DNA of 55,838 nt from an uncultured Gammaproteobacteria bacterium. GTDB taxonomy: Bacteria > Patescibacteriota > Microgenomatia > Levybacterales > GWA1-39-11. The stretch lies in NCBI GenBank assembly GCA_964511965.1, contig CAZEGF010000023.1:108887-164724 (forward strand), in the 5' to 3' direction. This document shows positions 10,273 to 55,838 of this stretch, in pieces. Below the pieces are notes generated by a model that worked only from the letters and a program-made list of their open reading frames with translations, was not told the origin of the DNA and made no database searches. The position numbers and the translations under genes were made by a program. The stretch's first letter is position 1; each line of letters starts with the position of its first letter.

Positions 10273-11028
10273 ATGTCTCAATTCCTACTTTCAGTGGTTA
10301 TTCCCTCATACAACGAAATGGGAAATCTACAAAAAGGAATACTCAACAAGATCCAAAAGTATCTCGATCGTCAACCATATAATTATGAAGTGATTATCGT
10401 TGATGATGGATCAACAGATGACAGCAGGGATTTTATAAAAAGATTTACAAAAGAAGAAAAAGAATTTCACCTCATTGAAAACACCCACACAGGTAAAGCT
10501 GGAGCTGTAACAGCGGGAGTACTTGCTGCCCACGGAGACTACATTTTATTTACCGATATGGATCAAGCTACTCCGATTGAGGAGTTAGAGAAAATAATGC
10601 CATATATTGATAAAGGATTTGACGTAGTTATTGGATCGCGTAGTGGAAATAGAAAAGGGGCACCATTTACGAGAAAAATTATGGCAAAAAGTATGATGAT
10701 TTTAAGATCTGCAATCGTGGGGTTGCCTGAAATTACAGATACTCAATGTGGTTTTAAGCTTTTTACCAAAGAAGCAGCCAAAAAAGTTTTTGAAAAAGTG
10801 AAAGAGTCACACCATGGATTTAAAAAAATCCATGGGTCATCAGTTACTGCAGGATTTGATATTGAACTTTTGTTTATTGCAAAGAATATGGGATTTAAAA
10901 TAAAGGAAGTTCCTGTCAGTTGGTTGTATGTTGAAACAAGAAGAGTAAGTCCTATAAAAGATTCTGTTGATGGTTTTTTTGAGTTATTCAAAATAAGAGG
11001 TAATATCAAATCTGGTAAATACGACTAA
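10273..11028 (+). CDS. GT2 glycosyltransferase, polyprenyl-phosphate sugar synthase type (DPM1/GtrB/Alg5-like)
   Basis: Motifs 'SVVIPSYNE', 'EVIIVDDGSTDDS', 'FTDMDQATP' (DxD region), 'TQCGFKLF'. About 250 aa with no long membrane tail. The ORF track starts at the GTG at 10228, but the ATG at 10273 is preferred. Confidence 0.85.
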   Translation: MSQFLLSVVIPSYNEMGNLQKGILNKIQKYLDRQPYNYEVIIVDDGSTDDSRDFIKRFTKEEKEFHLIENTHTGKAGAVTAGVLAAHGDYILFTDMDQATPIEELEKIMPYIDKGFDVVIGSRSGNRKGAPFTRKIMAKSMMILRSAIVGLPEITDTQCGFKLFTKEAAKKVFEKVKESHHGFKKIHGSSVTAGFDIELLFIAKNMGFKIKEVPVSWLYVETRRVSPIKDSVDGFFELFKIRGNIKSGKYD

Positions 11029-11029
11029 T

Positions 11030-12187
11030 ATGTCAAAGAAATTCTTTGTTCCACTGTGGGTCTTTGGATCTGTTCTTTTATTTCTCTATTCATTTACTCA
11101 AGTTGATCTTTCTTTGACTCTTTCAAGAGCTTCCATCTTTCAAACTATTGAGAAGAGTTTTCAATATGTTGGGTGGTTCAATAGACCTCTATCAACCTAT
11201 TTGTATATAGGAGTTTTTGTCATTTTATTCGCACTTTATCTATGGACTTTAATCCTTGTATCCAAAAAAAAGCTCAATAGAAAAACAGTTTGGATAGGAA
11301 TAATTGTAATCACCGGTATTCTTACTTTGTCTTACAATGCATTTTCGTATGACCTTTTTAACTACATTTTCGATGCAAAAATAGTAACACACTATCATTT
11401 AAATCCTTATATTCATAAAGCCTTAGACTTTTCCGGTGATCCCATGCTTTCTTTCATGCGCTGGACTCATAGAGTTTATCCATATGGTCCACTTTGGTTA
11501 GTGCTCACTGTTCCAATAAGTTTTATTGGACACAATATTTTCTTTTTAACTTTTTATCTTTTTAAAATCATGATTGCGTCTTTTTTCATACTTTGTGTAT
11601 GGTCAATTGAGAAGATAGGAAAGAGCCTTAAGCTTGATAATGTTCTTTATCCTGTTGTGGCATTTGCTTTCAATCCATACGTTCTTAGTGAAAGCCTTGT
11701 TAGCGCTCACAATGACATAGTCATGATGGGGCTTTGCCTATATGCAACAAGTTTACTTATCGATAAACAGGCATTGAAAGGTAGTGTGATGTATATTCTC
11801 TCAGCTGCTTTAAAATTTGCTACAGGATTATCTTTTATTGGGTTTCTAGTACTTCTTGTGATCCGGAAGACTAAATTCCTTATTCCAGTTTCGCTAATTT
11901 TGATGATTGGAGCGGTAGTACTTGCTTCACTTAGGACAAATTTCCAGCCATGGTATCTTTTATATGCATTCCCCTTTGCCGCATTGCTTATTAAAAGACG
12001 TGCGATCCGATTTCCTTATTATATATTTACAATTGCAAGCATTGCTTATTACATACCATTTCTTTATAACGGAAATTGGGATCCGCCAATTCCTATGACC
12101 CTTAACTACATTATTCTAGGAGCTACAGCTCTCTCAATAGTTATTTTTTTGGTTTATTTTCCCCATTCAAAAAAAGAAACAGGCTAG
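11030..12187 (+). CDS. polytopic membrane protein, GT-C-like (DUF2029 / GT87 / MptB-like mannosyltransferase pattern)
   Basis: About 10 helices. The first-loop pattern 'SYDLFNYIFDAKIVTHYHLNPYIH......YPYGPLWL' resembles the 'S.D.F.Y..DG......NPY......YGP' signature of polyprenyl-P-mannose-dependent GT-C enzymes. Confidence 0.55.
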   Translation: MSKKFFVPLWVFGSVLLFLYSFTQVDLSLTLSRASIFQTIEKSFQYVGWFNRPLSTYLYIGVFVILFALYLWTLILVSKKKLNRKTVWIGIIVITGILTLSYNAFSYDLFNYIFDAKIVTHYHLNPYIHKALDFSGDPMLSFMRWTHRVYPYGPLWLVLTVPISFIGHNIFFLTFYLFKIMIASFFILCVWSIEKIGKSLKLDNVLYPVVAFAFNPYVLSESLVSAHNDIVMMGLCLYATSLLIDKQALKGSVMYILSAALKFATGLSFIGFLVLLVIRKTKFLIPVSLILMIGAVVLASLRTNFQPWYLLYAFPFAALLIKRRAIRFPYYIFTIASIAYYIPFLYNGNWDPPIPMTLNYIILGATALSIVIFLVYFPHSKKETG

Positions 12188-12194
12188 GCATTTC

Positions 12195-12209: not shown

Positions 12210-13757
12210 ATGGTGTCTATTAAGAAATTATTTCCCGAAATTCTTTTTGCTCCTGTATTACTAATTTTATTTTTAGCAACACGTCTTACAAATATTCTGT
12301 CACTCCCAATTTTTACAGATGAGGCTATCTATACCCGATGGTCCCAAATTGCCAGATATGATTCAAATTGGCGATTTATTTCACTAACAGATGGCAAGCA
12401 GCCAGCTTTTGTGTGGTTGGACATGATAGTTATGCGGTTTTTTTCTGACCCATTGCTTGGTGGAAGGGTAGTATCTGTTATTTGTGGGTTTTTTGTCGTT
12501 TTGGGATTGTATTTTTTAACTTTCGAGATATTTAAAAATGAAAAATATAAAAGAATAATGGGCATTGTCGCCTCTGCTTTGGCCGTTATTTATCCATTTC
12601 TGATTGTGTATGACAAGCTGGCACTGTACGAAAGCATGATTGCTGCTTTTATGATATGGGCTTTGTACTTTCAGATACTACTTATCAGAAGAATACGTTT
12701 TGACCTAGCGCTTGTTACCGGATTTGTCATGGGAGGAGCTGTTCTTACAAAATCTTCAGGTTTTCTAGCACTTTATTTGATTCCTTTCATATTTCTTCTT
12801 TTCAATTTTAGTAATAAAAATAATAAGCAGAGACTAATAAGGGCTGTCGGATATTTTTTAGTTGTTTTTATAGTAGTGAACGTTTTCTATTCTGTTTTGC
12901 GGCTCTCACCTTTTTACCACATCATAAATCAAAAAAATTCAATTTTCGTCTATGATGTAGGCTCTTGGATTAAGCTTCCTATTAACGCAAAAATAGATAA
13001 TTTAGTAAGCAATAGTCGCGGACTTACCGATTGGTTTTTCAATTATTTCACGATTGTCTGGGCTCTTCTTGTAGGAGTATCATTTTTTATAAAAAGATCT
13101 TTCACAAAGGAAAAGTTAGTATTGTTTTTATGGTTTTTCCTTCCATTCCTTGCGCTTTGCTTTCTAGGAAAAACCCTTTATCCAAGATATCTACTGTTTA
13201 TGACAATTCCATTGATCCCGTTAGTTGCATATAGCGCAACACTTTTGTTTTTTAAATTTAAAAATATACTTATTAGGATTATTTTAATTATTCTTGTGCT
13301 TATTATTCCTCTCTGGACTGACTATTTTGTTATATTTGATTTTGCCCGTGCACCTATTCCAAAAATTGATTTGGAGCAACTTATCAATGGATGGCCTGCC
13401 GGAGGAGGTATACGGGAAAGTGTTGAGTTCTTTAGAGAGCAATCAAAAAATGGAGAAATTATGGTAGGTACTCAAGGAACTTTTGGTCTGATGCCTGCAG
13501 CTTATGAAATCTATTTTCGTGACAATCCGAATGTACGGATTAATGGCTTCTGGCCGGTAGAGAGCGATAAGGTACCTGATTTACTGATGGATTATGCGCA
13601 TAGAATACCAACGTATTTCGTATTCTACCAACCATGTCCTACCTGTGAAGTTGCAGGAATTGCTCCAAAGACATTAAATTTAAAAGAAATTGCATCATAC
13701 AATAAAGGAATTGGGACGACAAAACTTACCATTTACCAAGTGTTACCCACTAAGTGA
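12210..13757 (+). CDS. ArnT/PMT_2-like GT-C membrane glycosyltransferase
   Basis: First-loop acidic motif 'LPIFTDEAIYTRW'. About 12 helices. C-terminal soluble domain of ~140 aa. Confidence 0.7.
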   Translation: MVSIKKLFPEILFAPVLLILFLATRLTNILSLPIFTDEAIYTRWSQIARYDSNWRFISLTDGKQPAFVWLDMIVMRFFSDPLLGGRVVSVICGFFVVLGLYFLTFEIFKNEKYKRIMGIVASALAVIYPFLIVYDKLALYESMIAAFMIWALYFQILLIRRIRFDLALVTGFVMGGAVLTKSSGFLALYLIPFIFLLFNFSNKNNKQRLIRAVGYFLVVFIVVNVFYSVLRLSPFYHIINQKNSIFVYDVGSWIKLPINAKIDNLVSNSRGLTDWFFNYFTIVWALLVGVSFFIKRSFTKEKLVLFLWFFLPFLALCFLGKTLYPRYLLFMTIPLIPLVAYSATLLFFKFKNILIRIILIILVLIIPLWTDYFVIFDFARAPIPKIDLEQLINGWPAGGGIRESVEFFREQSKNGEIMVGTQGTFGLMPAAYEIYFRDNPNVRINGFWPVESDKVPDLLMDYAHRIPTYFVFYQPCPTCEVAGIAPKTLNLKEIASYNKGIGTTKLTIYQVLPTK

Positions 13758-15397
13758 GCATGAGGAGTAAATATCTACTACTTGTAATTTTACTGTCGAT
13801 TCTTCCTATAATTCCCTATTTTATAACTTCAAATCTTCTTCATACTCATGACGGACTCGTGCATTTGCCAAGACTTGCCGCCTATTTTAAAGCACTTTCG
13901 GAGGGAAGTATTCCAGTAAGGTTTGCCGGTTATCTTAATTATGGGTATGGATTACCATTATTTAATTTCATATATCAATTTCCCTATTGGGTGGGATCCT
14001 TACTTCTTGTTTTGGGATTTGGACTCGTTAATGCTTTCAAGATCTCTATAACTTTTAGTTTTATTTTATCAGGTATTTTCATGTTCATGTTTGGACAGGA
14101 ATATTTTGAAGACGACAAGAAAGCATTTTTAGCAACCATTTTTTATCAGTTTGCTCCATTTAGAATGGTGGAGCTTTTGGTCCGTGGAAGTTATGGTGAG
14201 GTTTACACGTATGCATTTCTACCCTTGGTTTTGAATGGGTTAACATTGCTTAGTAAAAAGAGAGCACTAAAGGGATTTATAACAACAGCAATTGCGGTTT
14301 TTTTTCTTATAATTTCTCATAATTCTGTTGCATTAATGTTCTTTGGAGCTGCAGTTTTATTTGTAATGTTTACTTTCAAAAGTTTGAACAAAGCAATTTT
14401 TGCAATTTTATCAATGCTTATGGGCCTTTGTCTTTCAGCATTTTATTGGATACCTGCACTTTTAGAACACAAATACACATTCGGAGATTTATTTATGGCA
14501 AAATTATATGAGTCCTATTTTCCTTCTTTTCAAAATTTCTTCATACCAAACTTCAACAATAACCCATCTCTTCAAACAACAGGAATAACAACTTATATAG
14601 GGCTTTTACAAAGTACAGTTTTAATCCTAGGTTTAATAATGCTATTTCTCAAACGCAAAAAGATCAAAGAATATAGCCGTATTTTTTATTATGCATATGT
14701 ACTAATAATAATTTCATTTTTCTTCATGAATCCTGTCTCAAAATTTATATGGAGTTCTAATGTTGGCTCGATGCTTCGTCAATTTCAATTTCCCTGGAGA
14801 TTTCTGGCTCTTATTGTTCTTGCAACTTCATTACTTTCAGTTAGTTTTTTTGTATTAAGTAAACGGTTTTCAAAAGGACTGTTTTACTTTACTATCGTTT
14901 CTATAACAGTTTTGTCCGTTGCATTTTACTGGAAGGGTAGTCTTGGGTACGACAAAATCAATGAAAAATATTATTGGAATTTTCCACTAACAACAACCTA
15001 TTATGGTGAGACAGATGTTGTTTGGTCAGAAGGACCTGCAAAAAAATATCCAAAAGCGCGAGTTGAATTTACAAGCGGAGGCGGAACAGTTTCTAATTTT
15101 TCTAAGAAAAATACCTTTCATTCCTTTGACATATTTGCAACAAGTAATTCAGAATTAGTCAGTCACACAGAATACTTTCCCGGATGGACCGTAATAGTTG
15201 ACGGAGTAAAAGTTCCAATTCAATTTCAGAATGCAAATCATAGAGGAGAAATTCTTTTTAATGTAACACGGGGCACTCATCATATTGTTATAAAGTTTGA
15301 AGAAAGCAAAATAAGGGCACTTGCAGATATTATTAGTATATTGTCCATTATAATTTTAGCATTTGTTTTATTATTCAAAAAAAAGTTATTTAGATGA
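13754..15397 (+). CDS. PTPS_related / COG5617-type polytopic membrane protein (GT-C-like), paralog 1 of 4
   Basis: Blocks shared with 19201, 20742 and 26453: 'HTHDG..H..R', 'FPVRF...L.YGYG.P.FNFY', 'VRGS.GE', 'SHNS', 'QFPWRF', and C-terminal 'YFPGW.V.VDG'. Start is the GTG at 13754 (GTGA overlap) or the ATG at 13760. Confidence 0.7.
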   Translation: MSMRSKYLLLVILLSILPIIPYFITSNLLHTHDGLVHLPRLAAYFKALSEGSIPVRFAGYLNYGYGLPLFNFIYQFPYWVGSLLLVLGFGLVNAFKISITFSFILSGIFMFMFGQEYFEDDKKAFLATIFYQFAPFRMVELLVRGSYGEVYTYAFLPLVLNGLTLLSKKRALKGFITTAIAVFFLIISHNSVALMFFGAAVLFVMFTFKSLNKAIFAILSMLMGLCLSAFYWIPALLEHKYTFGDLFMAKLYESYFPSFQNFFIPNFNNNPSLQTTGITTYIGLLQSTVLILGLIMLFLKRKKIKEYSRIFYYAYVLIIISFFFMNPVSKFIWSSNVGSMLRQFQFPWRFLALIVLATSLLSVSFFVLSKRFSKGLFYFTIVSITVLSVAFYWKGSLGYDKINEKYYWNFPLTTTYYGETDVVWSEGPAKKYPKARVEFTSGGGTVSNFSKKNTFHSFDIFATSNSELVSHTEYFPGWTVIVDGVKVPIQFQNANHRGEILFNVTRGTHHIVIKFEESKIRALADIISILSIIILAFVLLFKKKLFR

Positions 15398-17529
15398 AAA
15401 AATATTTACCTTTAATTACATTATTAATAGTATCAATTTTTTTCTTTTATCAAACTTTTTTTCTTTTTAAAGTTCCATTCCCGGGAGATCTTCTAGTCAG
15501 TGAGTATTCACCATGGAAGTACAGTTCCTATTTAGGATACAATCCGGGCTCATACCCAAATAAAGCTCAATATTTTGATGTAATAAGGCAATTATATCCA
15601 TGGAAAATTTTAGCAATGGATTTGTGGAAGAGTGGAACAATTCCATTGTGGAATCCATACAATTTTTCCGGAAGCCCTCTTCTTGCAAATAACCAATCAG
15701 GAGTATTTTACCCATTGAATGTATTATTTCTCATAAATGAAAATGGCGCTTCCTGGAGTATGTATATTTTCATGCAACCATTTCTTGCATCTCTTTTTAT
15801 GTATGTATATATCAGATCACTAAAGCGGTCAACATTTGCTGCATTAATATCTGCAATTTCGTTCGGGTTCTCTCTTTTCATGTCTACATTTTTAGAATAT
15901 GGAAATATTGGGCACACAATATTGTGGTTGCCTCTTATTCTTTTCTGTTTTGAAAAACTGAAGGAAAAAAAGATACTTTTTGCCCCCATTCTTACCATGG
16001 CAATATGTTTTGCTTTTTTTGCCGGACACCTGCAAATAGCCGCATCAATAGTTTTGTTTTCAATAGTTTATTTACTCATAACAAATATGAAAAACAAACG
16101 GGTTCTAATTACCGGATTTTCATTTATTTTTTTGGGAATACTATTATCAAGCATTCAATTAATTCCAACGCTTGAACTTTTGCTAAATTCAGCAAGAGAT
16201 GCACATTCTAGGCATATGATAAATGACTTATTTCTTTTGCAACCCCAACAATTACTATTATTATTCGCGCCGGATTCATATGGTAACCCGGCTACCCGTA
16301 ATTACCTTTTGACAGATACATATCCGGGTAATGCTATATATATAGGTATATTGCCTCTCCTTTTTGCGACAGGTGCTATATTTCGAAAGAAAAGAGAGAA
16401 ATTTGTTAATATTTTTTCGATATTTGTAATTACATTATTAATTTTATTTATCAAAAATCCAATCTCATCCTTTGTTTTTAATCAATCTATATTCTCAGCA
16501 AGTTCACCTTCTAATTTTTTCTATTTATTAGGATTTTGCTTAAGTGTTTTGTGTGCATATGGTGTTGACACAAAACAGGTCAAATTGAAAAAGTATTTAA
16601 TACAAATTGGAATAGTTGTTTTCTTACCAATATTTTTCTTTCTATTGCATTACCTTTTTCACATTCCAATTAATACTAAGCAATTCGTTGTGAGTCTAGT
16701 GGTAATTGGAATAAGTTGTGGGGCACTTTTACTGCTTAAAATAGTTAAAAATAAATACATTTGGATTCTTCCTCTTTTCGTACTTACTCTTGAGCTTTTT
16801 TACTTTTTTAACAAATTTAACCCATTTGTCCCTAAAAGTTTTATGTACCCGACAACGGATATAATAACTTACCTTCAAAAAAATGCAGGAAACAACAGAT
16901 TTATTGGTTACAAAGCAGCAGCAGTTGAGTCCAATTTTGCAACACAATTTCGAGCATATTCCCCGGATGGTTATGATCCGCTGTATCCAAAAATTTACAA
17001 TACATATACACATTCAAAATCAAGATCGGATGTAGTAATTGATCTTGCTAACAAACAAACATTAAATGAACTTGGTGTTAAGTATGTTTTGGACCGAGTT
17101 GAAAATGGGGCAGACCAAAAAGTATTTGATCCAAATCAGTTTTCAATAAGTTATACAAATAATAATTGGCGTGTATTTAAAAATAATAATTCTTACCCCA
17201 GGGCTTATGTGATTGATAAAAATCAGATTATTAACACAAACATAATTTCTTATACTCCAAATAAAGTAATAATTGCAAAAAATGAAGGAGAAGGTACACT
17301 TGTTCTGTCAGACACTTATTTTCCCGGGTGGAAAGCAACAATTGATGGAGTTGAGGAGAAAGTTTTGAGAGTAAACAATATCTTTAGAGCTGTTGAAGTT
17401 CCAAAAGGGAACCACACTGTTGTTTTTGATTACATACCAAAATCTTTCACTTGGGGTGTAATTATTACTATAATAAGTAGTATCACAACTTTTATTGCTT
17501 ATATTTGGATGAGAAAATATTCAAAATGA
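15394..17529 (+). CDS. YfhO-family GT-C membrane glycosyltransferase, paralog 1 of 3
   Basis: YfhO pattern 'LYPW......W..G.IPLWNPY.FSG.PLLAN.QSGVFYPLN', 'FAGHLQ', 'PD.YGNP', 'GYDPLY', and C-terminal 'YFPGWKATIDG'. ATGA overlap with the upstream gene. Confidence 0.85.
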   Translation: MKKYLPLITLLIVSIFFFYQTFFLFKVPFPGDLLVSEYSPWKYSSYLGYNPGSYPNKAQYFDVIRQLYPWKILAMDLWKSGTIPLWNPYNFSGSPLLANNQSGVFYPLNVLFLINENGASWSMYIFMQPFLASLFMYVYIRSLKRSTFAALISAISFGFSLFMSTFLEYGNIGHTILWLPLILFCFEKLKEKKILFAPILTMAICFAFFAGHLQIAASIVLFSIVYLLITNMKNKRVLITGFSFIFLGILLSSIQLIPTLELLLNSARDAHSRHMINDLFLLQPQQLLLLFAPDSYGNPATRNYLLTDTYPGNAIYIGILPLLFATGAIFRKKREKFVNIFSIFVITLLILFIKNPISSFVFNQSIFSASSPSNFFYLLGFCLSVLCAYGVDTKQVKLKKYLIQIGIVVFLPIFFFLLHYLFHIPINTKQFVVSLVVIGISCGALLLLKIVKNKYIWILPLFVLTLELFYFFNKFNPFVPKSFMYPTTDIITYLQKNAGNNRFIGYKAAAVESNFATQFRAYSPDGYDPLYPKIYNTYTHSKSRSDVVIDLANKQTLNELGVKYVLDRVENGADQKVFDPNQFSISYTNNNWRVFKNNNSYPRAYVIDKNQIINTNIISYTPNKVIIAKNEGEGTLVLSDTYFPGWKATIDGVEEKVLRVNNIFRAVEVPKGNHTVVFDYIPKSFTWGVIITIISSITTFIAYIWMRKYSK

Positions 17530-23148: not shown

Positions 23149-23179
23149 CTGTACTAATGGCAGACGAGAAATATTTTTT

Positions 23180-31396: not shown

Positions 31397-31402
31397 AGTT
31401 TA

Positions 31403-31411: not shown

Positions 31412-31434
31412 CAGTGACATTTTTTATGCAATGT

Positions 31435-39366: not shown

Positions 39367-39384
39367 GTTGCTTGAATAAATAAA

Positions 39385-41325: not shown

Positions 41326-41358
41326 GTGGTTACAAATACTTTAAACTTATAAAATAAA

Positions 41359-47499: not shown

Positions 47500-47500
47500 T

Positions 47501-48559: not shown

Positions 48560-50205
48560 TTACAAAACACTTAAATAAATTTTTAATTGCTGTTATTCTT
48601 ATTGCAGCGGTCCTGCGTCTTTGGAATCTTAACGCTGTTCCCCCGTCTGCCTCTCTTGATGAGTCATCAATTGGATACAATGCATATTCTGTAATTAAAA
48701 CCGGTGGTGATGAGTTTGGTACATTTCCATTAATTTCCCAAAGGGGTTATGATGACTACCGCCGATCTACCTATCTTCTACTTGTTGCTCCTTTTGTTTC
48801 GGTCTTAGGACTTAATGTCATAGCCGTTAGGCTCCCAGCTGTAATATTGAGTATTTTAACTGTTTGGGCAGTATTTGGAATAGTAAGACGATTAGTTAAA
48901 AAACCTTCTGAATTTGGTGATCGTTTAGCTTTAATATCTGCGTTGATTCTAGCAACAAGTCCTTGGCATATTTATATATCCCGAATTGGTCACGAATCTA
49001 ACGCGTGTCTTTCTTTTTTTGTTTTTGCAGTTTTGTTTTTTCTTAAAGGGTTAGAAAATAAAAAACTTCTATTAGTCTCTGTGTTATTTTTTGCACTTGC
49101 GTTGGTGAGTTATTACTCCGGACAGGTTCTGGTTCCGCTCTTTGTTCTAGCTTTAGTTGTAATTTATAGAAAACAACTATTAAAAATCGTATTTTCTGAT
49201 AACAAATCAAAACTTATAACAATAAGCGTATTTATATTAGCAATTCCTATCGTGTGGTCTGTTTTTTCACCGGAGGCTCTCATAAGATTTAGAGGCACAA
49301 GTACTTTTTCCCCAAGTGCACACGAACAACTATTTAAGGAGCGTGTTTTATTACGGAATAAAGCAGTTGCCAATCACGACGTTTTAGGGTCAATTATTTA
49401 CAATCAACGACTTTTCCCTCTCGTTGTTCTTTTCCAGGGGTACATCGATCACTTTAATCCGCAATGGTTATTCTTTAATAATTCTAATGGAATATTTAAG
49501 GCTCCTCATGAAGGTTTATTATATCCGTGGCAGATTATATTTATTCTCATTGGCATTTTTGCGCTCGTAAAAACAAATAAATTAACTAATAAATCCAAAT
49601 TATTTCTTATTATTTGGTTTCTTGTAGGTGCTTTACCGGCTTCAATAGCGACGCAAACACCTCACGCGATGCGTTCTTATAACATCTTGCCTGCGTGGGA
49701 GATATTTACTGCTTTGGGTTTGACAGTAATTATTTATAAGTTTTATAAATTTAGACTTGTTCTGGGGGTTGTAATTGGTATCTTTTTCATCTTTTCATTA
49801 CAATCATTTTTAACGAACTATTTTGTTACATTCCCGAAAGAACAATCAAAATCTTTTCAATATGCATACGGGAAGGCTTTGGGGTACGTAATTACAAATC
49901 AGGATAAATACCAAAAAATTATTGTTTCAAATAAAGACAATATGTTCCAGTCGTACATGATATTTCTTTATTACAGCAAATACGATCCTTCACTTTATCA
50001 AAAACAAGGTGGGACAAAATCCGGAGGGTATGATGCTACTCATTTCTTTGGAAAATATGAATTTAGAACGGTTGATTGGAATAACGAAAAAAATACAAAT
50101 ACACTTTATGTTTTAAATCCTCAAGAAGTGCCTGTGGGAGCTCAAAAATTGTACGAAGGTAAATACCTTGATGGTACAACCGGCGCAATAGTTATATCTC
50201 GTTGA
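48556..50205 (+). CDS. GT39/PMT_2-like GT-C membrane glycosyltransferase, family member
   Basis: 'ASLDESSIGYNAYSVIKTGGDEFG', 'LATSPWHIYISR', 'YQKIIVSNKDN.FQSYMIFLYY'. ATGA overlap. Confidence 0.8.
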   Translation: MITKHLNKFLIAVILIAAVLRLWNLNAVPPSASLDESSIGYNAYSVIKTGGDEFGTFPLISQRGYDDYRRSTYLLLVAPFVSVLGLNVIAVRLPAVILSILTVWAVFGIVRRLVKKPSEFGDRLALISALILATSPWHIYISRIGHESNACLSFFVFAVLFFLKGLENKKLLLVSVLFFALALVSYYSGQVLVPLFVLALVVIYRKQLLKIVFSDNKSKLITISVFILAIPIVWSVFSPEALIRFRGTSTFSPSAHEQLFKERVLLRNKAVANHDVLGSIIYNQRLFPLVVLFQGYIDHFNPQWLFFNNSNGIFKAPHEGLLYPWQIIFILIGIFALVKTNKLTNKSKLFLIIWFLVGALPASIATQTPHAMRSYNILPAWEIFTALGLTVIIYKFYKFRLVLGVVIGIFFIFSLQSFLTNYFVTFPKEQSKSFQYAYGKALGYVITNQDKYQKIIVSNKDNMFQSYMIFLYYSKYDPSLYQKQGGTKSGGYDATHFFGKYEFRTVDWNNEKNTNTLYVLNPQEVPVGAQKLYEGKYLDGTTGAIVISR

Positions 50206-50211
50206 TATAAT
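50203..50211 (+). promoter_or_regulatory. consensus extended -10 box TGaTATAAT, 6 nt upstream of the ATG at 50218; its TGA is the stop codon of the upstream gene
   Basis: Reads ctcgtTGaTATAATagatatATGaaa. The whole 12-bp gap plus the stop codon is taken up by this element. Confidence 0.55.
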
Positions 50212-50217
50212 AGATAT

Positions 50218-50994
50218 ATGAAAAAACTTTCTGTAGTTCTTGCCACATACAACGAGGAAGAGAATCTGGACCGGTGCCTTGCTTCTGTAAAAGATTTAGC
50301 TGACGAGATAGTAATTGTTGATGGAACTTCAAAAGATAAAACTGTCGAAATCGCTAAATCCTACAGTGCAAAAGTTATTATTACAACAAATCCTCCAAAT
50401 TTCCACATAAATAAGCAGAAGGCAATTGACAAAGCATCGTGCGATTGGATTCTTCAGCTTGATGCGGATGAGGTTGTATCTGACGGACTTGCATTAGAGA
50501 TAAAGCATATTCTCAAAAGTGACCCTGAAGAAAACGGATATTGGATGCCAAGAAAAAATTATTTTTTAGGACGATTTCTTATGAAAGGTGGTCAATATCC
50601 TGATTATACGGTCAGATTGTACCGTAATGGGAAGGGGAAATTACCTCAAAAGGACGTTCATGAACAAGCTGTCATTGAGGGAAAAATTGGTTATCTTAAA
50701 GAAGCATTGCTTCATTATCCCTACAAAAATTTCAGTTTTTATGTAACAAAATGGATGCGATACAATCATCTTCTAGCATCACAAATCAATGATGATCTAA
50801 AAAAGAAGAATTTTTTGTTACGTATTTATTATGGATTCGCTTATTTACTGGCAAAACCTGCTCATTGGATGTTAACAGCCTATGGAAGACATAAGGGATT
50901 TTATGATTCTTGGCAGGGGTTGGTTTTTGCTATAATGTCAGCACTACGATTCCCGGTTTCCTATATTTTATACTTACAAAATAAATATGAATGA
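50218..50994 (+). CDS. GT2 glycosyltransferase (WaaE/LgtF-like subtype), paralog 3 of 3
   Basis: 'LSVVLATYNEEENLDRCLASVKDLADEIVIVDGTSKDKT', 'QLDADE', 'YPDYTVRLYR'. Confidence 0.8.
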   Translation: MKKLSVVLATYNEEENLDRCLASVKDLADEIVIVDGTSKDKTVEIAKSYSAKVIITTNPPNFHINKQKAIDKASCDWILQLDADEVVSDGLALEIKHILKSDPEENGYWMPRKNYFLGRFLMKGGQYPDYTVRLYRNGKGKLPQKDVHEQAVIEGKIGYLKEALLHYPYKNFSFYVTKWMRYNHLLASQINDDLKKKNFLLRIYYGFAYLLAKPAHWMLTAYGRHKGFYDSWQGLVFAIMSALRFPVSYILYLQNKYE

Positions 50995-51961
50995 TAAAAC
51001 AATCTTAGTAACAGGTGGAGCAGGCTATATTGGTGGCTTTATGGTGAGAAAACTCGTAGAGCGTGGATATACCGTTGTTGCCATTGACAATCTTTCACGA
51101 AATGATAGACCGGAATTGCCTGAGAATGTTAATTTTGTCGAAGGAAGTGTAGGAGATAGACAAATACTTAAATCAATTTTTGAAAATACTCGGATAGATG
51201 GCGTTATTCACTTTGCTGCATTCATTTCAATGGCAGAGTCCATGAAAGACCCATTCATCTATTTCGAAGATAATGTGTACGATACCCTCATTCTTCTTGA
51301 AGAAATGAAAAACCATAATGTTAAAAATATAATTTTTTCATCAACCGCAGGGGTTTATGGCAATCCAACAATTTTACCGATTCCTGAAGATCATCCAAAA
51401 AATCCGACAAATCCTTATGGACAAAGTAAGCTCATGGTTGAGCAAATTCTTGCCTGGTACCAAAAAATTCATGGTGTATCATATACAGCTCTTCGTTACT
51501 TCAACGCTTGTGGAGCTTCACTTGATGGTAAGTACGGTGAAAATCATAAACCCGAGACGCATATCATCCCTCGTGCGATAACTGCCTTAATACACAATGA
51601 ACCATTTGAGCTTTTTGGTCGAGATTACCAAACCCCTGACGGTACATGCGTTAGAGACTATATTCATGTTCTAGATCTTGTAGAAGCACACGTTTTGGCA
51701 TTGGAAAAATTATTTGAGAACCCAACAGGATCTATTTATAATGTTGGAACCGGACAGGGTCTTTCAAATAGTCAGATTTTAAAGACCATAGAGGAAGTAA
51801 CCGGGAGACAAATGAACATTGTTGAGAAGGAGAGAAGACCTGGGGATGCAAATGAATTGGTCGCTGATGTTAGTAAAATCAAAGATGAGCTAGGATTTAC
51901 CCCTCAATATTCAGACATTAAAACAATTATTGAATCTGCTTGGAAATTTCACAGTAAATAA
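50987..51961 (+). CDS. galE: UDP-glucose 4-epimerase (GalE family)
   Basis: 'ILVTGGAGYIGG', 'DNLS', 'SSTAGVYG', 'YGQSKLMVEQIL', 'LRYFNACGA', 'DGTCVRDYIHV.DL'. 324 aa. Confidence 0.85.
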   Translation: MNDKTILVTGGAGYIGGFMVRKLVERGYTVVAIDNLSRNDRPELPENVNFVEGSVGDRQILKSIFENTRIDGVIHFAAFISMAESMKDPFIYFEDNVYDTLILLEEMKNHNVKNIIFSSTAGVYGNPTILPIPEDHPKNPTNPYGQSKLMVEQILAWYQKIHGVSYTALRYFNACGASLDGKYGENHKPETHIIPRAITALIHNEPFELFGRDYQTPDGTCVRDYIHVLDLVEAHVLALEKLFENPTGSIYNVGTGQGLSNSQILKTIEEVTGRQMNIVEKERRPGDANELVADVSKIKDELGFTPQYSDIKTIIESAWKFHSK

Positions 51962-51971
51962 AAATAACTTC

Positions 51972-51983
51972 AAACTTAAAACT
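51972..51983. repeat. left arm (aaacttaaaact) of a 12-bp perfect inverted repeat flanking the four-helix-bundle gene
   Basis: Its reverse complement, agttttaagttt, recurs at 52368-52379. The left arm also lies within a short tandem (aaactta)x2. Confidence 0.6.
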
Positions 51984-51993
51984 TAAAAACAAA

Positions 51994-52356
51994 ATGCCCA
52001 ATAGATTTGAAAGCCTTCCAATTTTTCAAATTGCGCACGAATTTGTTTTGGAAGTTTATAAAACATCAAAGTTATTCCCTGTGGATGAGCGTTTTGGATT
52101 AACAAGTCAGATTAGAAGATCTGTATCTTCAATTCCAACAAATATTGTAGAAGGTAATGCGCGCGGGCATAAGAAAGAAATTGTTGAGTTTTTGTATATT
52201 GCTAAAGGATCACTTGAAGAAACTAAATATCATCTTCTATTATCAAGGGATCTAGAGTACATAAGCCCTGAAAATTATGAAGCATTGACACAATATGCTG
52301 ATTTAGTTGGAAAACAATTAAATGGATTAATAAATTACTGGAAGAACAAATCATAA
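51994..52356 (+). CDS. four-helix-bundle protein (23S rRNA intervening-sequence protein family)
   Basis: 'IFQIAHEFVLEVYK.SK.FP..ERFGLTSQIRRS.SSIPTNIVEGNAR..KKE...FLYIAKGSLEE..YHL.LS.DL.YI' is the canonical pattern of this family. 120 aa. Confidence 0.85.
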   Translation: MPNRFESLPIFQIAHEFVLEVYKTSKLFPVDERFGLTSQIRRSVSSIPTNIVEGNARGHKKEIVEFLYIAKGSLEETKYHLLLSRDLEYISPENYEALTQYADLVGKQLNGLINYWKNKS

Positions 52357-52367
52357 TTTGAATTTAC

Positions 52368-52379
52368 AGTTTTAAGTTT
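52368..52379. repeat. right arm (agttttaagttt) of the 12-bp inverted repeat flanking the four-helix-bundle gene
   Basis: Perfect reverse complement of 51972-51983. Confidence 0.6.
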
Positions 52380-52385
52380 ATTGTT

Positions 52386-52391
52386 TATAGT
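52386..52391 (+). promoter_or_regulatory. -10 box TATAGT, 6 nt upstream of the ATG at 52398 (predicted leaderless start)
   Basis: Reads ttgttTATAGTttatatATGcgt. Confidence 0.45.
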
Positions 52392-52397
52392 TTATAT

Positions 52398-53459
52398 ATG
52401 CGTATAGTTGTTGATATTGGTCCGATAGATTCAAATAGTACGAGTGGTCACAAGGTTCGGGGGGTAGGCAAATATATAAAAATACTTCGTGATAATCTTC
52501 AAAAATTTGACGAAACAAACACATATATTTTTTCTTCAAACCCGTCAAAGGAAAGGGGAATAGATTTGATTCATTACCCTTATTTTGACCCATTTTTCAT
52601 TACACTCCCATTAATAAAAAGAACCAAGAGTTTGGTAACAGTACACGATGTTATCCCGCTTTCTCATGCCAAACAATTCCCGGTTGGTATTAAAGGAAAC
52701 ATTAAATGGAAACTTAACAAAGCTCTCCTCAAACAGGTTAATGGAATAATTACCGATTCATTTGCTTCAAAAGATCAAATACACAAAATAACCGGGATTT
52801 CCGAAAAAAAAATATATCCTGTACATCTTGCCGTTGATCATGAGTTTAAGAGATTGGAAAAAGGAGCATGGGAAAATAAGATAAGAAAAAAATATAGCCT
52901 GCCGGAAGTATTTGTTTTATACGTTGGTGATGTTACTTGGAACAAAAATTTACCAAATATTGTGGTGTCAGCAAAAAAAACAAATATCCCACTGGTTATA
53001 GTTGGTAAAGCGTTAAGCGAATTGAATTTTGATGTAAAGAACCCATGGAATAGTGACCGTAAAATTGTTTTGGACCAAACTCTCAATAATCCACTTTTTA
53101 TAAAACTAGGATTTGTCCCAACAGATGAGTTAGTTGAAATCTACAACTTAGCACAAGCATTACTTATGCCGTCATTTGATGAAGGATTTGGATTGCCTGT
53201 TTTAGAAGCTATGAAATCAGGATGTCCTGTTATTACATCTGATCGTGGAAGTTTGGCAGAAGTGGCTGGAGACGCAGCAATATATGTTGATCCGGATGAT
53301 CCTGAGTCGATTAGTAAAGCTATTGGACTAATTTTAGTTTCTAAAAGTTTAAAAAATGAATTAGTTGATAAGGGATTTGAACAAGCTAAACACTTCTCCA
53401 TAGAAAAAATGATGAAAGACACAATTACAGTTTATAATACATTCTCCCATGAAAAATAA
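52398..53459 (+). CDS. GT4 (group 1) glycosyltransferase
   Basis: 'MRIVVDIGP', 'VGD...NKN', 'PSFDEGFGLPVLEAMKSGCPVITSDRGSLAEVAGDAA'. Confidence 0.85.
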   Translation: MRIVVDIGPIDSNSTSGHKVRGVGKYIKILRDNLQKFDETNTYIFSSNPSKERGIDLIHYPYFDPFFITLPLIKRTKSLVTVHDVIPLSHAKQFPVGIKGNIKWKLNKALLKQVNGIITDSFASKDQIHKITGISEKKIYPVHLAVDHEFKRLEKGAWENKIRKKYSLPEVFVLYVGDVTWNKNLPNIVVSAKKTNIPLVIVGKALSELNFDVKNPWNSDRKIVLDQTLNNPLFIKLGFVPTDELVEIYNLAQALLMPSFDEGFGLPVLEAMKSGCPVITSDRGSLAEVAGDAAIYVDPDDPESISKAIGLILVSKSLKNELVDKGFEQAKHFSIEKMMKDTITVYNTFSHEK

Positions 53460-54711
53460 AATATTTGAGATATTGAGACACCCTCTCATATCCGGTTCTT
53501 TTCTGTTGATTTCAGGTGGAATTCTAGCAAATCTCTTCAGTTTTATTTTTAACTTCTTCATGAGCCGTAATTTATTAGTCGAAGATTATGGAACATTTGT
53601 AAGTTTGGTTTCTATAATTACACTTCTTTCAATCCCTGCCGGGGCTTTAGCGCCGACAATTGTTACATTAGCTGGTAATTTTTTTGCAGACGGAAATTTA
53701 GGAATGGTAAAAGCATTATATTTAAAAATAATTACTATTTTAACGTTAATATCTATCTTTCTATTTATTCTTTTCACTATATTTGCTCCATCAATGGCAT
53801 CATTTTTTAATATAAAAGAAGCCGTTTTGCTGCCTTTAACAGCTGTGGCTATAATGTTTTCTTATATATTTACTATTAATCTTTCATTTTTTCAGGCACG
53901 ACTTTCTTTTAAACTATTACCATCACTAAGTGTGATCTCATCATTTACGAAGTTGATATTTGGAGTAATTTTAGTGCTTTTAGGATTTGGATTGGGGGGA
54001 GCAGTCGGTTCTTATTTGCTATCCTATATAATTCCAATACTTGTTGGAACATTTTTTTTGAGACACATTTTATTTCATAAATCCGCAAAAAAAACACATA
54101 TTTCTTTTAAAGAGTTAATTAATTTTGGAATACCCTCGGCAATAATTATTTTTTGTTTAAATTCATTTATAAATACGGATATACTATTGGTAAAACATTT
54201 ATTTTCTGAAAGGGATGCAGGATTTTATGCCGGACTTTCACTTGTTGGGCGTGTTGTATTTTACATAACAGCACCAATAACAACCGTTATGTTTCCTATA
54301 ATAATTAATAAAGTAAAAAGTAATCTTCCTTATAAAAATATTCTTTATGCCTCTATAGCTGTTACTGCTGCAATCTCAATATTTGTCACAGGATTTTACT
54401 TTTTGTTTCCAAAATTTACCATACTCTTTTTCCTAAAAAAAGAGGAATACTTAACAATTGCAGGTGATTTAGGAATGTTTGGAATATTTATAACAATATA
54501 TTCCCTTGTTTCAGTCCTTGTTTATTACTTTTTGTCACTTAAAAAAACTCAAATATTACCAATTTTACTAACGGGTGTAATACTTCAGGCAATATTAATA
54601 TATTTTTTCCATTCAAGTTTTTCTGTGATTATTCTAATTTCTTCAGTAGTTAGTTTTACCGTCCTAATTGGACTTACGCTTTCTTTTAAATTACTTTCTG
54701 CTAATAAATAA
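53449..54711 (+). CDS. MOP-superfamily flippase-like membrane protein (Wzx / polysaccharide biosynthesis protein type)
   Basis: 420 aa with ~12 helices. The N-terminal 'SGSFLLISGGILANLFSFIFNFFMSRNL..EDYGTF' and mid-protein 'FYAGLSLVGRV' blocks resemble Polysacc_synt-type flippases. Less certain than 23180. Confidence 0.6.
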   Translation: MKNKIFEILRHPLISGSFLLISGGILANLFSFIFNFFMSRNLLVEDYGTFVSLVSIITLLSIPAGALAPTIVTLAGNFFADGNLGMVKALYLKIITILTLISIFLFILFTIFAPSMASFFNIKEAVLLPLTAVAIMFSYIFTINLSFFQARLSFKLLPSLSVISSFTKLIFGVILVLLGFGLGGAVGSYLLSYIIPILVGTFFLRHILFHKSAKKTHISFKELINFGIPSAIIIFCLNSFINTDILLVKHLFSERDAGFYAGLSLVGRVVFYITAPITTVMFPIIINKVKSNLPYKNILYASIAVTAAISIFVTGFYFLFPKFTILFFLKKEEYLTIAGDLGMFGIFITIYSLVSVLVYYFLSLKKTQILPILLTGVILQAILIYFFHSSFSVIILISSVVSFTVLIGLTLSFKLLSANK

Positions 54712-54766
54712 TTACTTTCCGCATGGAAAATAATATATGTTTGGGTTAGAATAGACCGAAGTAATA

Positions 54767-55588
54767 ATGAAAACTAAAGGTCCACAGGTTATCTCCTTAA
54801 TTATTCCTGCTTACAAACAAGAAAAAACAATTTTCAGAGATATTACAAATTTAAAAAAAAGCTTGGATGATCTAAAGCAACCATACGAAATAATTGTAGT
54901 TATCGATGGAGATTTGGATAAAACTTTTCTGCAGTTAAAAAAGATTAAGACACGAAAATTGAAAATATATAAATTCGACAGGAACCAAGGGAAAGGTTCA
55001 GCAATTAAATTTGGTGTACAAAATGCTAAAGGAGACATAATAGGATTTATAGATGCCGGTATGGATATTGACCCAACTGGAATAGCAATGCTAATAAACC
55101 ATATGCTTTGGTACAATGCGGATATTATTGTGGGCTCTAAATTACATCCGGTTTCTCAAGTAAATTATCCTACAGAACGAAAAATTCTTTCATGGGGTTA
55201 TAGAACGTTTACGCGTATTTTGTTTGGATTTAAAGTTAGAGATACGCAAGTCGGTATAAAATTTTATAGAAGAAGAGTAGCACGTGATGTGTTTCCAAGA
55301 TTATTAGCTAAAAAATTTGCTTTCGATGTTGAGATTTTAGCATTATCTTACGCATTAGGTTATACTCGGATTTATGAAGCACCGATAAAGCTTAAATTCC
55401 GTGGTGTTAATTCAATAACCTCTAAAAATCTTTGGAAAATAATTTTTCTCATGCTTTGGGATACCGCAGCAATATTTTATCGTGTTAGAATAATTAAGTT
55501 TTATAAAAGAAGTAATAGAAAAAATTGGAGTAACACTGTTGCATCATTGAGAAAAAAAAGGAAAAAGAGTAAAAAAATTAATAAATGA
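54767..55588 (+). CDS. GT2 glycosyltransferase (DPM1/GtrB-like) with a basic C-terminal tail
   Basis: 'ISLIIPAYKQE', 'EIIVVIDGD', 'NQGKGSAIKFG', 'FIDAGMDIDP', 'DTQVGIKF'. Lys/Arg-rich C-terminus. Confidence 0.8.
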   Translation: MKTKGPQVISLIIPAYKQEKTIFRDITNLKKSLDDLKQPYEIIVVIDGDLDKTFLQLKKIKTRKLKIYKFDRNQGKGSAIKFGVQNAKGDIIGFIDAGMDIDPTGIAMLINHMLWYNADIIVGSKLHPVSQVNYPTERKILSWGYRTFTRILFGFKVRDTQVGIKFYRRRVARDVFPRLLAKKFAFDVEILALSYALGYTRIYEAPIKLKFRGVNSITSKNLWKIIFLMLWDTAAIFYRVRIIKFYKRSNRKNWSNTVASLRKKRKKSKKINK

Positions 55589-55838
55589 ATATATTAGTTT
55601 TGAATTGGAGGGATCCAAAACATCCATTAGCGGGTGGTGCTGAAATATCATTACTTCATCACGTACGATATTGGCAGAAAAAGGGTCACACAATTACCTG
55701 GTTTGCTTCAGGGTACCCAAACGCTAAAAAAAAGGAAGTATTTGAAGGAATAAATATTATTAGAGCTGGGAGTCATTATACTGTATCTTTACACTTTTTT
55801 TATAATTGGATACGATCAAAATTTAGAGATTCTGACAT
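55585..55838 (+). CDS. GT4 (group 1) glycosyltransferase, N-terminal part, 3'-truncated by the window edge (not in the supplied ORF track)
   Basis: The ATG at 55585 forms an ATGA overlap with the upstream stop. The frame is open to the window end and translates to 'MNILVLNWRDPKHPLAGGAEISLLHHVRYWQKKGHTITWF..', a typical GT4 N-terminal domain. Confidence 0.7.
   Translation, partial: MNILVLNWRDPKHPLAGGAEISLLHHVRYWQKKGHTITWFASGYPNAKKKEVFEGINIIRAGSHYTVSLHFFYNWIRSKFRDSD

Follow-up and report, generated by a model that had tools for sequence, protein, structure and literature searches.

In three-component glycosylation systems, a glycosyltransferase (GT) of the GT-A fold loads one sugar on C55 polyprenyl phosphate (C55-P), a flippase moves it across, and a polytopic GT-C enzyme transfers it to an acceptor on the outside (PMC8035078). 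The flippase in such systems is of the GtrA type, or of the Wzx type as proposed for GacK (PMC8035078). Named multi-component systems are CsbB/GtcA/YfhO, GtlA/GtcA/GtlB, GacI/GacK/GacL and the Gtr systems of O-antigen modification (PMC8035078, PMC5836110, PMC11127046). Here we describe an array of 18 predicted GT-C genes in a stretch of 55,838 bp (the window; GC content 0.30-0.38), which is the final 55.8 kb of a 164-kb contig (CAZEGF010000023.1) of the European Nucleotide Archive (ENA). The host is Candidatus Levybacteria (Microgenomates, Patescibacteria). From its gene content, the locus at positions 10273-55838 is probably an envelope-glycosylation super-operon that encodes a highly multiplexed multi-component transmembrane glycosylation system, of the sort found in Gram-positive bacteria, in O-antigen modification and in mycobacteria.

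Like the described systems, the locus encodes candidate donor synthases of family GT2, flippases and polytopic GT-C proteins together. YfhO-family members, as in CsbB/GtcA/YfhO, score above the Pfam cutoff, and a Wzx-type flippase could stand in for GtrA in the way proposed for GacK. Unlike the described systems, which have one GT-C per module and few per genome, this locus has 18 predicted GT-Cs of at least six sequence families beside about four candidate donor synthases, and it lacks the GtrA that some of those systems use. A large number of GT-Cs is also found in the mycobacterial and corynebacterial machinery for arabinogalactan and lipo(arabino)mannan, which works outside the membrane with polyprenyl-phosphate monosaccharide donors. 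The mycobacterial set comprises MptA/MptB, PimE, EmbA/B/C and AftA-D, with donors from Ppm1 and related enzymes; its genes are scattered, at most about four being contiguous (aftA-embCAB), in genomes roughly four times larger. Two proteins of our locus (g12 and g31) lie in the MptA_B/GT87 sequence neighbourhood, and Emb and Aft are among the fold matches. However, g12 falls below the NCBIfam cutoffs for MptA and MptB, and there was no evidence in the locus for arabinose or mannose donors.

Streptococcal Pgf consists of the GT2 enzyme PgfS, the GT-C enzymes PgfM1/PgfM2 and the epimerase PgfE (PMC12041528); our genes g39, g40 and g41 repeat the composition of GT-C, GT2 and GalE. The locus resembles the PMT enzymes of family GT39 in its PMT_2/PMT matches and in a DE motif in loop 1. 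It differs from them in having no MIR domain and, in one paralog family (family A), a C-terminal alpha/beta domain. The lumenal set of the eukaryotic endoplasmic reticulum (ER), with ALG3/6/8/9/10/12, STT3, PIG-B/M/V/Z, DPY19 and TMTC, contains a comparable number of diverse GT-Cs, which take sugars from polyprenyl phosphate on the non-cytoplasmic side, and STT3, DPY19 and ALG9/12 were the best fold matches of g33 and g35. This likeness is at the fold level only (8-17% identity), and the eukaryotic genes are dispersed rather than placed in an operon.

To our knowledge, the GT-C genes of a characterised bacterial locus number one or two (four in the mycobacterial aftA-embCAB region), and 18 in one array are unprecedented among studied systems. 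An earlier note on this DNA, made from the letters alone, had claimed that the array stands out. This is true in comparison with characterised loci, but not within Microgenomates, where an array of this kind is typical and occurs across the lineage. In the full-text literature on glycosylation in the Candidate Phyla Radiation (CPR), Patescibacteria, Microgenomates and Levybacteria, we found no description of GT-C arrays; the nearest remark, in a paper on a Microgenomates genome (PMC7143001), was a passing mention of "29 genes of glycosyl transferases". The array itself is apparently undescribed. Its component families are all known, and its genes in public metagenome-assembled genomes (MAGs) are mostly annotated as hypothetical. 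The genomes of Patescibacteria are drastically reduced, and a life attached to other cells is assumed for these bacteria; what such genomes keep is informative. In the present one, predicted extracytoplasmic glycosylation takes up about 45 kb, with further genes beyond the window.

The array and its predicted GT-C enzymes

The cluster comprised 36 contiguous genes, 35 of them on the + strand, according to the listing of open reading frames (ORFs), a check for small ORFs and a check of the window end. The earlier note had described the same layout. The sole gene on the - strand was g26, encoding an 82-aa DUF5652 protein (31148-31396), which divides the array into two co-directional blocks. Neighbouring genes overlapped by 4 nt (n = 9), 1 nt (n = 3) or 11 nt (n = 3), or were separated by gaps, the largest of which was 55 nt; the coding density was 99.3%. 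Eighteen non-flippase polytopic proteins of 385-763 aa made up 10,112 of about 15,200 codons, near the roughly 10,000 of 15,000 estimated before. The cluster occupied about 45 kb of a genome of roughly 1 Mb, the complete chromosome of a related Levybacteria (1.14 Mb) serving as the size reference. The 18 proteins and their putative assignments are as follows (TM, transmembrane helices).

g12, 11030-12187, +: 385-aa GT-C of MptA/MptB (GT87-related) type; 8 TM; PF26314 MptA_B_family in its gene record and in homologs
g13, 12210-13757, +: 515-aa PMT_2/PMT-type GT-C; PMT_2 32.7 and PMT 28.5 bits, both above cutoff; 10 TM
g14, 13754-15397, +: PTPS_related GT-C (family B); PF10131 40.9 bits; invariant HD in loop 1; C-terminal TM
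g15, 15394-17529, +: YfhO-family GT-C; PF09586 109.9 bits; PxPxD
g16, 17505-19223, +: family A PMT_2-type GT-C with C-terminal soluble domain; PMT_2 44.7 and PMT 35.3 bits; invariant DE, GYNAYS
g17, 19186-20745, +: family B (PTPS_related-like) GT-C with no Pfam match of its own; BLASTP to g14 1.9e-51, to g23 9e-65
g18, 20742-22430, +: PTPS_related GT-C (family B); PF10131 46.8 bits; weak DUF6541 match
g23, 26438-28105, +: PTPS_related GT-C (family B); PF10131 46 bits
g24, 28095-30386, +: YfhO-family GT-C; PF09586 79.2 bits
g28, 32511-34754, +: YfhO-family GT-C, 747 aa; PF09586 84.3 bits
g31, 36414-37658, +: GT87 (DUF2029)-type GT-C; GT87 23.2 bits, below the cutoff of 25
g32, 37648-39366, +: family A GT-C; PMT_2 25.5 bits, just below cutoff; paralog of g35 (1e-52); DE motif
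g33, 39385-41325, +: 646-aa GT-C of a family without Pfam model; fold match; a few homologs match DUF6541
g34, 41359-42879, +: PMT_2-type GT-C; PMT_2 31.8 bits; 9 TM
g35, 42915-44537, +: family A GT-C; PMT_2 40 and PMT 38.4 bits
g36, 44534-46213, +: family A GT-C; PMT_2 21.9 bits, below cutoff; paralog of g35 (2e-77) and g39 (3e-85)
g37, 46210-47499, +: 429-aa PMT_2-type GT-C without large soluble domain; PMT_2 34.3 bits; 10 TM
g39, 48556-50205, +: family A GT-C; PMT_2 48.5 bits

For each of the 18 there was evidence suggesting the GT-C fold. They were tallied as eight PMT_2-type, four PTPS_related, three YfhO and two GT87/MptA_B-like proteins, and one (g33) without a Pfam match. Twelve scored above the Pfam gathering scores (six PMT_2, three PTPS_related and three YfhO, the last at the scores listed above against a gathering score of 28.5 bits) and three below (g31, g32 and g36). 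Pfam matches to the GT-C clan thus reached 15 of the 18, and g12, g17 and g33 had no match in our local Pfam copy. PMT, PMT_2, PTPS_related and GT87 are all members of Pfam clan CL0111 (PMC7801869).

Proteins with weak or absent Pfam matches were placed by other evidence. Both g32 and g36 were clear paralogs of other family members, and g17 was 29-30% identical to g14, g18 and g23 (E 4e-26 to 9e-65, BLASTP). For orthologs of g31, the records give PF09594 and the name "glycosyltransferase 87 family protein". Against NCBIfam, g12 obtained 30.1 bits for MptB (cutoff 40) and 61 bits for MptA TIGR03459 (E 1e-16, cutoff 439); by these scores, g12 is classed as a member of the MptA_B family and not as an MptA or MptB equivalog. 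All-vs-all BLASTP revealed a five-member paralog family A (g16, g32, g35, g36 and g39), to which g01, a gene outside the cluster, also belongs. A crude Kyte-Doolittle hydropathy scan gave 6-12 helices for each of the 18.

Acidic residues in the first loop were invariant within three families: DE in family A (motif DExxxGYNAYS), HD or DD in the PTPS_related family B, and PxPxD in the YfhO family (g15, g24 and g28). Elsewhere, g13 had DE after TM1, g12 had D directly after TM1 and g37 had WDQ. No MIR domain was matched by any cluster protein in Pfam, and a sequence search of family A against the PDB returned only ArnT (E 0.83). For these two reasons the PMT_2-type proteins are best regarded as PMT_2-type relatives and not as GT39 PMTs. 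Alignment of family profiles by hhalign linked family B with YfhO (98.5%), family A with g13 (93.6%) and family A with g37 (91%), but comparisons between such shallow profiles were mostly uninformative. We also noticed that g28 ends directly after the conserved C-terminal beta domain and is without the final TM helix of g15, g24 and all four PTPS_related paralogs.

Structures of two of the 18 proteins, g33 and g35, were modelled with AlphaFold2 and searched against the PDB with Foldseek. Both models consisted of a helical bundle plus a C-terminal soluble domain, which in g35, and hence family A, was an uncharacterised alpha/beta domain. The g33 model (pLDDT 87.9) had 17 significant PDB matches, all of them GT-C (E 6e-9 to 4e-4, TM-score 0.33-0.48), including DPY19 (6e-9), STT3/OST, AglB, AftA, ArnT and PglB. 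For g35 (pTM 0.80, pLDDT 74), the top 34 PDB matches were all GT-C, with TM-scores up to 0.51; Pmt4, ALG9/12, Emb and Aft were also among the structures matched by the two models. Transporters appeared in these searches only at probabilities below 0.2. At least 200 homologs of g33 were found, all hypothetical proteins of Patescibacteria.

Transporters or unrelated folds were therefore rejected, by the fold matches for g33 and g35 and by Pfam for the rest. The earlier note had named this as a way in which its count of 18 GT-C-type enzymes might fail. That count is now backed by Pfam, paralogy, PF26314, the GT87 orthologs and the two models. Its four PTPS_related proteins (three by Pfam and g17 by paralogy) and three YfhO proteins were recovered as well, and its one ArnT-like protein (g13) is now among the eight assigned to PMT_2.

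Conservation and age of the array

We scanned a genome collection with the family A motif DEx[SAF][ILW]GYNA[YF] and obtained at least 593 confirmed loci. The best 80 were analysed, as stretches of at most 21.7 kb around the matches, with the window proteins mapped onto their ORFs by phmmer. They were named Candidatus Levybacteria/Levyibacteriota, Gottesman-, Roizman-, Curtiss- or Woesebacteria, Microgenomates or Patescibacteria, and the closest match among them (75% identity) was from Candidatus Levybacteria/Levyibacteriota. In public data, family A had 5,986 representatives at 50% identity (E <= 1e-30).

The gene order recurring in these loci was GT4(g27)-YfhO(g28)-GT2(g29)-GT2(g30)-[GT87]-A(g35)-A(g36)-[PMT_2/A(g39)], followed by PTPS(g23)-GT2(g40)-GalE(g41)-MptA_B(g12)-PTPS. 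The pair g35-g36, adjacent in 74 of the 80, was the most conserved part of the array. The order g29-g30 was kept in half of the loci (40/80), and a g40-like gene was present in 56/80, usually followed in the gene maps by a GalE-like gene. Because the order recurs in 74 of 80 related loci, it is not due to chance. The order was kept in Levy-, Gottesman-, Roizman-, Woese- and Curtissbacteria, and orthologs were 40-76% identical whereas paralogs were 22-34% identical; from these comparisons we infer that selection maintains the array. It is a conserved, lineage-wide feature of Microgenomates that is present in hundreds of public MAGs, and it is not peculiar to this contig. The shared order is also the outcome of the synteny check that the earlier note had proposed.

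The duplications appeared to be old. For g35, g36 and g39, a separate ortholog of each (40-50% identity) was found in Gottesman-, Woese-, Roizman- and Curtissbacteria, while the paralogs were about 30% identical to one another. The duplications are thus older than the divergence of these lineages. At the DNA level, no repeats above 70 nt with identity of at least 70% were detected; the longest were 30-70 nt at about 70% identity and matched conserved motifs. Such short repeats, together with paralogs at 22-34% identity, rule out a recent amplification. The view that the paralogs share no repeats at the DNA level and reflect an old, maintained diversification, formed earlier from the letters, was thus borne out.

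The number of GT-C-like genes varied among the related loci, with a median of 7 and a range of 2-12. We also sampled the 80 longest ORFs of these loci without a match to the window proteins. Sixty-five of them had at least seven predicted TM helices, and most had no Pfam match. Twenty-two matched further families of the GT-C clan (17 PMT_2, 2 DUF2079, 2 PIG-V-like and 1 Alg6/Alg8), which implies that the GT-C pan-repertoire at this locus exceeds that of any one genome. The unmatched polytopic ORFs (loci L010-L089) are probably further undescribed GT-C-like families. Wzy_C was matched once among the 80 ORFs, and no phosphoglycosyltransferase was seen among the classified ORFs of the 80 related loci.

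Many public records with a Microgenomates-type locus (L010, L017, L022 and others) were titled "uncultured Gammaproteobacteria", one was titled Deltaproteobacteria and one Bacteroidia. These titles look like placeholder or wrong organism names.

At the strain level, the array was found in separate assemblies. The 11 kb at 44767-55838 recurred in three other assemblies at 99.93-99.94% identity, and its last 4.9 kb in a fourth at 99.82%. ENA and Logan assemblies made separately from different samples agreed in the order of genes g24-g41. Several independent assemblies ended about 250 nt into the last GT4 gene (window 55585-55838). This GT4 was complete with 371 aa in one related stretch (L005, 10819-11934) and shortened to 286 aa in another (L004, 10819-12574), where it abutted a DegT aminotransferase without the first ~98 profile positions. 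The shortened GT4 and DegT in L004, and the assemblies that stop exactly there, indicate that the 3' flank is variable between strains, and suggest that a junction left by strain-level deletion or recombination lies at this edge of the cluster.

A proposed multiplexed glycosylation route and its alternatives

Besides the GT-Cs, the cluster contained nine GT2 and three GT4 genes (one a terminal fragment), two MOP flippases, GalE and one other SDR epimerase/dehydratase. Counts by Pfam agreed with those of the earlier note. These genes and a few others of the cluster are listed below with their putative functions.

g11, 10273-11028, +: GT2, 251 aa, candidate polyprenyl-phosphate sugar synthase (Dpm1/GtrB/ArnC-like); Glycos_transf_2 108 bits; PgfS, ArnC and PpgS below cutoff
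g19, 22435-23148, +: GT2, candidate polyprenyl-phosphate sugar synthase; GT2 93.5 bits; TM at 215-233; AglJ, PgfS, ArnC and PpgS below cutoff
g20, 23123-24634, +: MOP (Wzx-type) flippase; Polysacc_synt_3 162 bits; NCBIfam MOP flippase and O-glycosylation Wzx below cutoff
g21, 24653-25552, +: soluble GT2 (Glyco_tranf_2_4 / SunS-like group), by Pfam and NCBIfam
g22, 25552-26460, +: GT2 (rhamnosyltransferase/MftF-like), by Pfam and NCBIfam
g25, 30386-31147, +: soluble GT2 (Glyco_tranf_2_4 group), by Pfam and NCBIfam
g26, 31148-31396, -: DUF5652 small two-helix membrane protein; PF18893 63.6 bits
g27, 31450-32517, +: GT4 (GT-B fold, cytoplasmic); Glycos_transf_1 69.9 bits
g29, 34754-35689, +: GT2 with C-terminal TM (EpsD/rhamnosyltransferase-like), by Pfam and NCBIfam
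g30, 35686-36417, +: GT2, candidate polyprenyl-phosphate hexose synthase (AglJ/Dpm1-like); GT2 124.7 bits
g38, 47483-48559, +: SDR nucleotide-sugar epimerase/dehydratase; Epimerase 130 bits; no NCBIfam equivalog reached
g40, 50218-50994, +: GT2 with C-terminal TM (Glyco_tranf_2_4 group), by Pfam and NCBIfam
g41, 50987-51961, +: UDP-glucose 4-epimerase GalE; TIGR01179 392 bits against a cutoff of 262
g42, 51994-52356, +: 23S rRNA-intervening-sequence-type four-helix-bundle protein; PF05635 121 bits
g43, 52398-53459, +: GT4; Glycos_transf_1 87.5 bits
g44, 53449-54711, +: second MOP (Wzx-type) flippase; Polysacc_synt_3 55.2 bits; 12 TM
g45, 54767-55588, +: GT2, candidate polyprenyl-phosphate sugar synthase; GT2 77.5 bits; PgfS, ArnC and PpgS below cutoff
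Last GT4, 55585-55838, +: 5' part, cut by the window and contig end, from the sequence

The nine GT2s fell into three groups: g11/g19/g30/g45, g21/g25/g40 (Glyco_tranf_2_4 / SunS-like) and g22/g29 (rhamnosyltransferase and EpsD types). Members of the first group aligned over their full length with AglJ, PgfS, ArnC, PpgS and the haloarchaeal Dol-P-hexose transferase. Among them g30 appeared to be the best candidate for a polyprenyl-phosphate hexose synthase, with 116.9 bits to AglJ over 3-217 of 293 profile positions and with matches to the Dol-P-hexose transferase and PpgS, all below cutoff. C-terminal TM helices were predicted in g19, g29 and g40. Within the window, Pfam revealed no phosphoglycosyltransferase (Bac_transf, Glycos_transf_4), no Wzy_C, no WaaL-type or O-antigen ligase and no Wzz. 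A system that receives single sugars on polyprenyl monophosphate would be expected to lack a phosphoglycosyltransferase and a polymerase, as seen here.

Each step of the route that we propose is deduced from family membership. At the cytoplasmic face, GalE (g41), g38 and the aminotransferase and acetyltransferase found downstream would diversify nucleotide sugars. The synthases g11, g19, g30 and g45 would then load single sugars on polyprenyl phosphate, and the other GT2 and GT4 enzymes might build or extend a lipid-linked primer. The lipid-linked sugars would be flipped, plausibly by the Wzx-type MOP flippases g20 and g44, as proposed for GacK. On the outer face, each GT-C would use its loop-1 Asp and a polyprenyl-phosphate donor to glycosylate a specific position on one or more acceptors, which could be a wall or secondary polymer, a lipoglycan and/or surface proteins (S-layer, pili). 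We favour this multi-component route because no priming enzyme or polymerase occurred in the loci examined, apart from the one Wzy_C match, and because the loop-1 Asp is invariant within families. What the gene content is, that the proteins have GT-C fold and motifs, that the array is conserved and old and that the assembly is sound are observations, whereas the donors, flippases and acceptors named here, and whether there is one product or several, are deductions from sequence families.

Several observations weigh against this route. The scores of g11, g19, g30 and g45 for polyprenyl-phosphate sugar synthases were far below the equivalog cutoffs, and three of the four had no TM helix in the crude hydropathy scan, g19 being the only one with a helix. 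No GtrA-type flippase was found in the window or among the 80 longest unmatched ORFs of the related loci. MOP flippases more usually carry oligosaccharides on undecaprenyl diphosphate (Und-PP), yet no priming enzyme was found here. The acidic first loop, which the earlier note had ascribed to the membrane enzymes in general, was not clearly placed in g31 and g33. The fold matches were moderate (TM-scores 0.41-0.51), and the g35 model was built from an alignment of six sequences. Finally, the promoter and terminator scans favoured no particular structure of transcription units.

The alternative that survives best, and that we hold as a tentative possibility, is a glycosylation island. Independent GT2 plus GT-C systems would be co-located in it, each with its own acceptor: S-layer, pilin or Ser/Thr-rich proteins (O-glycosylation), teichoic-acid-like polymers (for the YfhO-like enzymes), peptidoglycan or lipids. 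Such an island would have diversified under pressure from phages or host recognition. GT2-then-GT-C modules do repeat along the array, there are two flippases, and family A, g13, g34 and g37 are PMT-like, g13 and family A with the DE motif. The consecutive genes g39 (PMT_2-type GT-C), g40 (GT2) and g41 (GalE) echo the composition of PgfS/PgfM/PgfE (PMC12041528), and the succession of a g40-like and a GalE-like gene is repeated in related loci. The strong variation in GT-C content between species and the strain-level rearrangement at the 3' end, with shortened GT4 and DegT, would also suit an island. However, the window proteins showed neither MIR nor another known protein-acceptor domain and included no candidate acceptor, and the g35-g36(-g39) core, found in 74/80 loci, is too conserved for a purely diversifying cassette.

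Slightly less probable is a single assembly line, in which all 18 GT-Cs act in sequence on one heteropolysaccharide or lipoglycan at the outer face. This would be similar to the mycobacterial synthesis of lipomannan, lipoarabinomannan and arabinogalactan (MptA/B, PimE, Emb, Aft) or to the lumenal ALG steps. The conserved core order across Microgenomates orders and the arrangement of the genes as one co-directional, translationally coupled array speak for it, and g12 and g31 are of MptA/B or GT87 type, from families known to elongate polymers. The ratio of only four candidate donor synthases to 18 transferases fits many linkage-specific enzymes sharing few donors. On the other side, the GT-C set differs among species: a locus has 2 to 12 members, and PMT_2, DUF2079, PIG-V-like and Alg6/8-like genes are found in addition. 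Such wide variation in number and composition is easier to reconcile with exchangeable modules than with a fixed pathway. Neither a lipid anchor nor a priming enzyme was found, and the characterised relatives of YfhO and PMT type add single sugars to pre-existing polymers or proteins (PMC8035078).

The MOP flippases, GT2s, GT4s and nucleotide-sugar enzymes are also what an ordinary Wzx/Wzy locus for O-antigen or exopolysaccharide (EPS) would contain, with the polytopic proteins being mostly polymerases, ligases and transporters. This reading is very improbable and already largely refuted. The polytopic proteins match families of the GT-C clan, the models match GT-C structures with transporters below 0.2 probability, and no Wzy_C, O-antigen ligase, Wzz or phosphoglycosyltransferase matches were found in the window, although these could lie elsewhere in the genome. 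That the contig is an artefactual chimera of glycosylation loci from different genomes, a risk raised in the earlier note, was rejected, since near-identical, collinear copies occur in independent assemblies (99.8-99.9%), 80 loci from other species are syntenic and the GC content is uniform (0.30-0.37), while nothing was found in its favour apart from the common end point of several assemblies about 250 nt into the last GT4.

Within the multiplexed route, the conserved core suggests a common product, and the variable periphery and strain-variable 3' end suggest decorating modules that can be exchanged; a combination of the two is likely. A bolder version, which we consider doubtful, is that the main envelope glycoconjugate of Microgenomates is built almost wholly outside the membrane by an ancient, conserved line of 10-20 GT-Cs with few polyprenyl-phosphate sugars. 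If so, it would be a bacterial equivalent of the lumenal ALG pathway of the ER or of mycobacterial arabinomannan synthesis, contained in one operon that occupies some 4% of a genome of 1 Mb. Its product might then be an S-layer or host-contact glycan that governs attachment and recognition of these ultrasmall cells, and the locus would hold several GT-C families in which no protein has been characterised, namely family A, the g33 family and many unassigned polytopic ORFs of related loci. More generally, if the proposed route is true, the envelope or surface glycans of Microgenomates, a large uncultivated group, would exceed the assumed complexity by far, and most of their synthesis would take place outside the membrane. 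The array would then also offer a compact natural library of GT-C specificities for glycoengineering and for the acceptor rules of GT-Cs, as well as a genetic marker or target for host attachment, phage recognition and cultivation of Microgenomates.

Flanks, signals and minor genes

Features upstream of the cluster include the following.

g01, 9-1244, +: 3' part of a separate family A PMT_2 gene, outside the cluster; BLASTP to g32 1e-43
tRNA-Glu(CTC), 9524-9596, -: ARAGORN; Rfam tRNA 67.3 bits; the sole RNA gene found in the window
g10, 9688-10227, +: 179-aa soluble protein, no Pfam or NCBIfam match; promoter-like site at 9649-9677

The tRNA gene marks the upstream boundary between housekeeping genes (MFS transporter, SLT, phosphoenolpyruvate (PEP) synthase and a Crp-type regulator) and the glycosylation array. 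The earlier note had counted a 19th GT-C at the window start. In the parent contig, g01 is indeed a complete 543-aa PMT/PMT_2 gene, but it is isolated, with housekeeping genes on its flanks that separate it from the cluster. On weak evidence, the transcription unit may begin with g10.

Promoter and terminator scans gave counts at or below the shuffle expectation, with one exception: 18 terminator-like sites were found in 29000-48999 against 9.4 expected, and none of them fits the gene junctions. A few promoter-like sites sit in the rare intergenic gaps (9649, 31414, 52363 and 54724). The one before g27, at 31414-31443, has an extended -10. The coding region of g26 directly follows the stop codon of g25; the protein might, for example, be a small flippase subunit or a regulator.

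A g42-like gene was present in only one of the 80 related loci, and therefore g42 is probably a passenger in the cluster. The protein had a sub-threshold match to bAvd, whose fold is that of accessory proteins of diversity-generating retroelements, and such a retroelement was considered and rejected, as the window contained no reverse transcriptase and no pair of template and variable repeats.

Downstream, in the 213.8-kb contig of the 99.94%-identical strain (L004), glycan genes continued for at least 10 kb, with a DegT aminotransferase, an acetyltransferase, an epimerase, a methyltransferase, a GT2 and large unknown proteins. At 13306-15573 (+) of L004, a 755-aa open frame with a weak HD-domain match was observed, where the public gene call has a 292-aa gene and an 89-aa gene on the opposite strand; this may be a mis-call or a degraded gene. 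On the other side of the array, a Crp/FNR-type cNMP-binding regulator (window 1537-2196) adjoins the isolated g01 (the pair at 8077-10660 of L090), 9 kb upstream of the cluster. A small baeRF family-10 (eRF1-like) protein, unrelated to the array, is encoded at 5166-5609 (+), 3' of the PEP synthase/PPDK-like gene.

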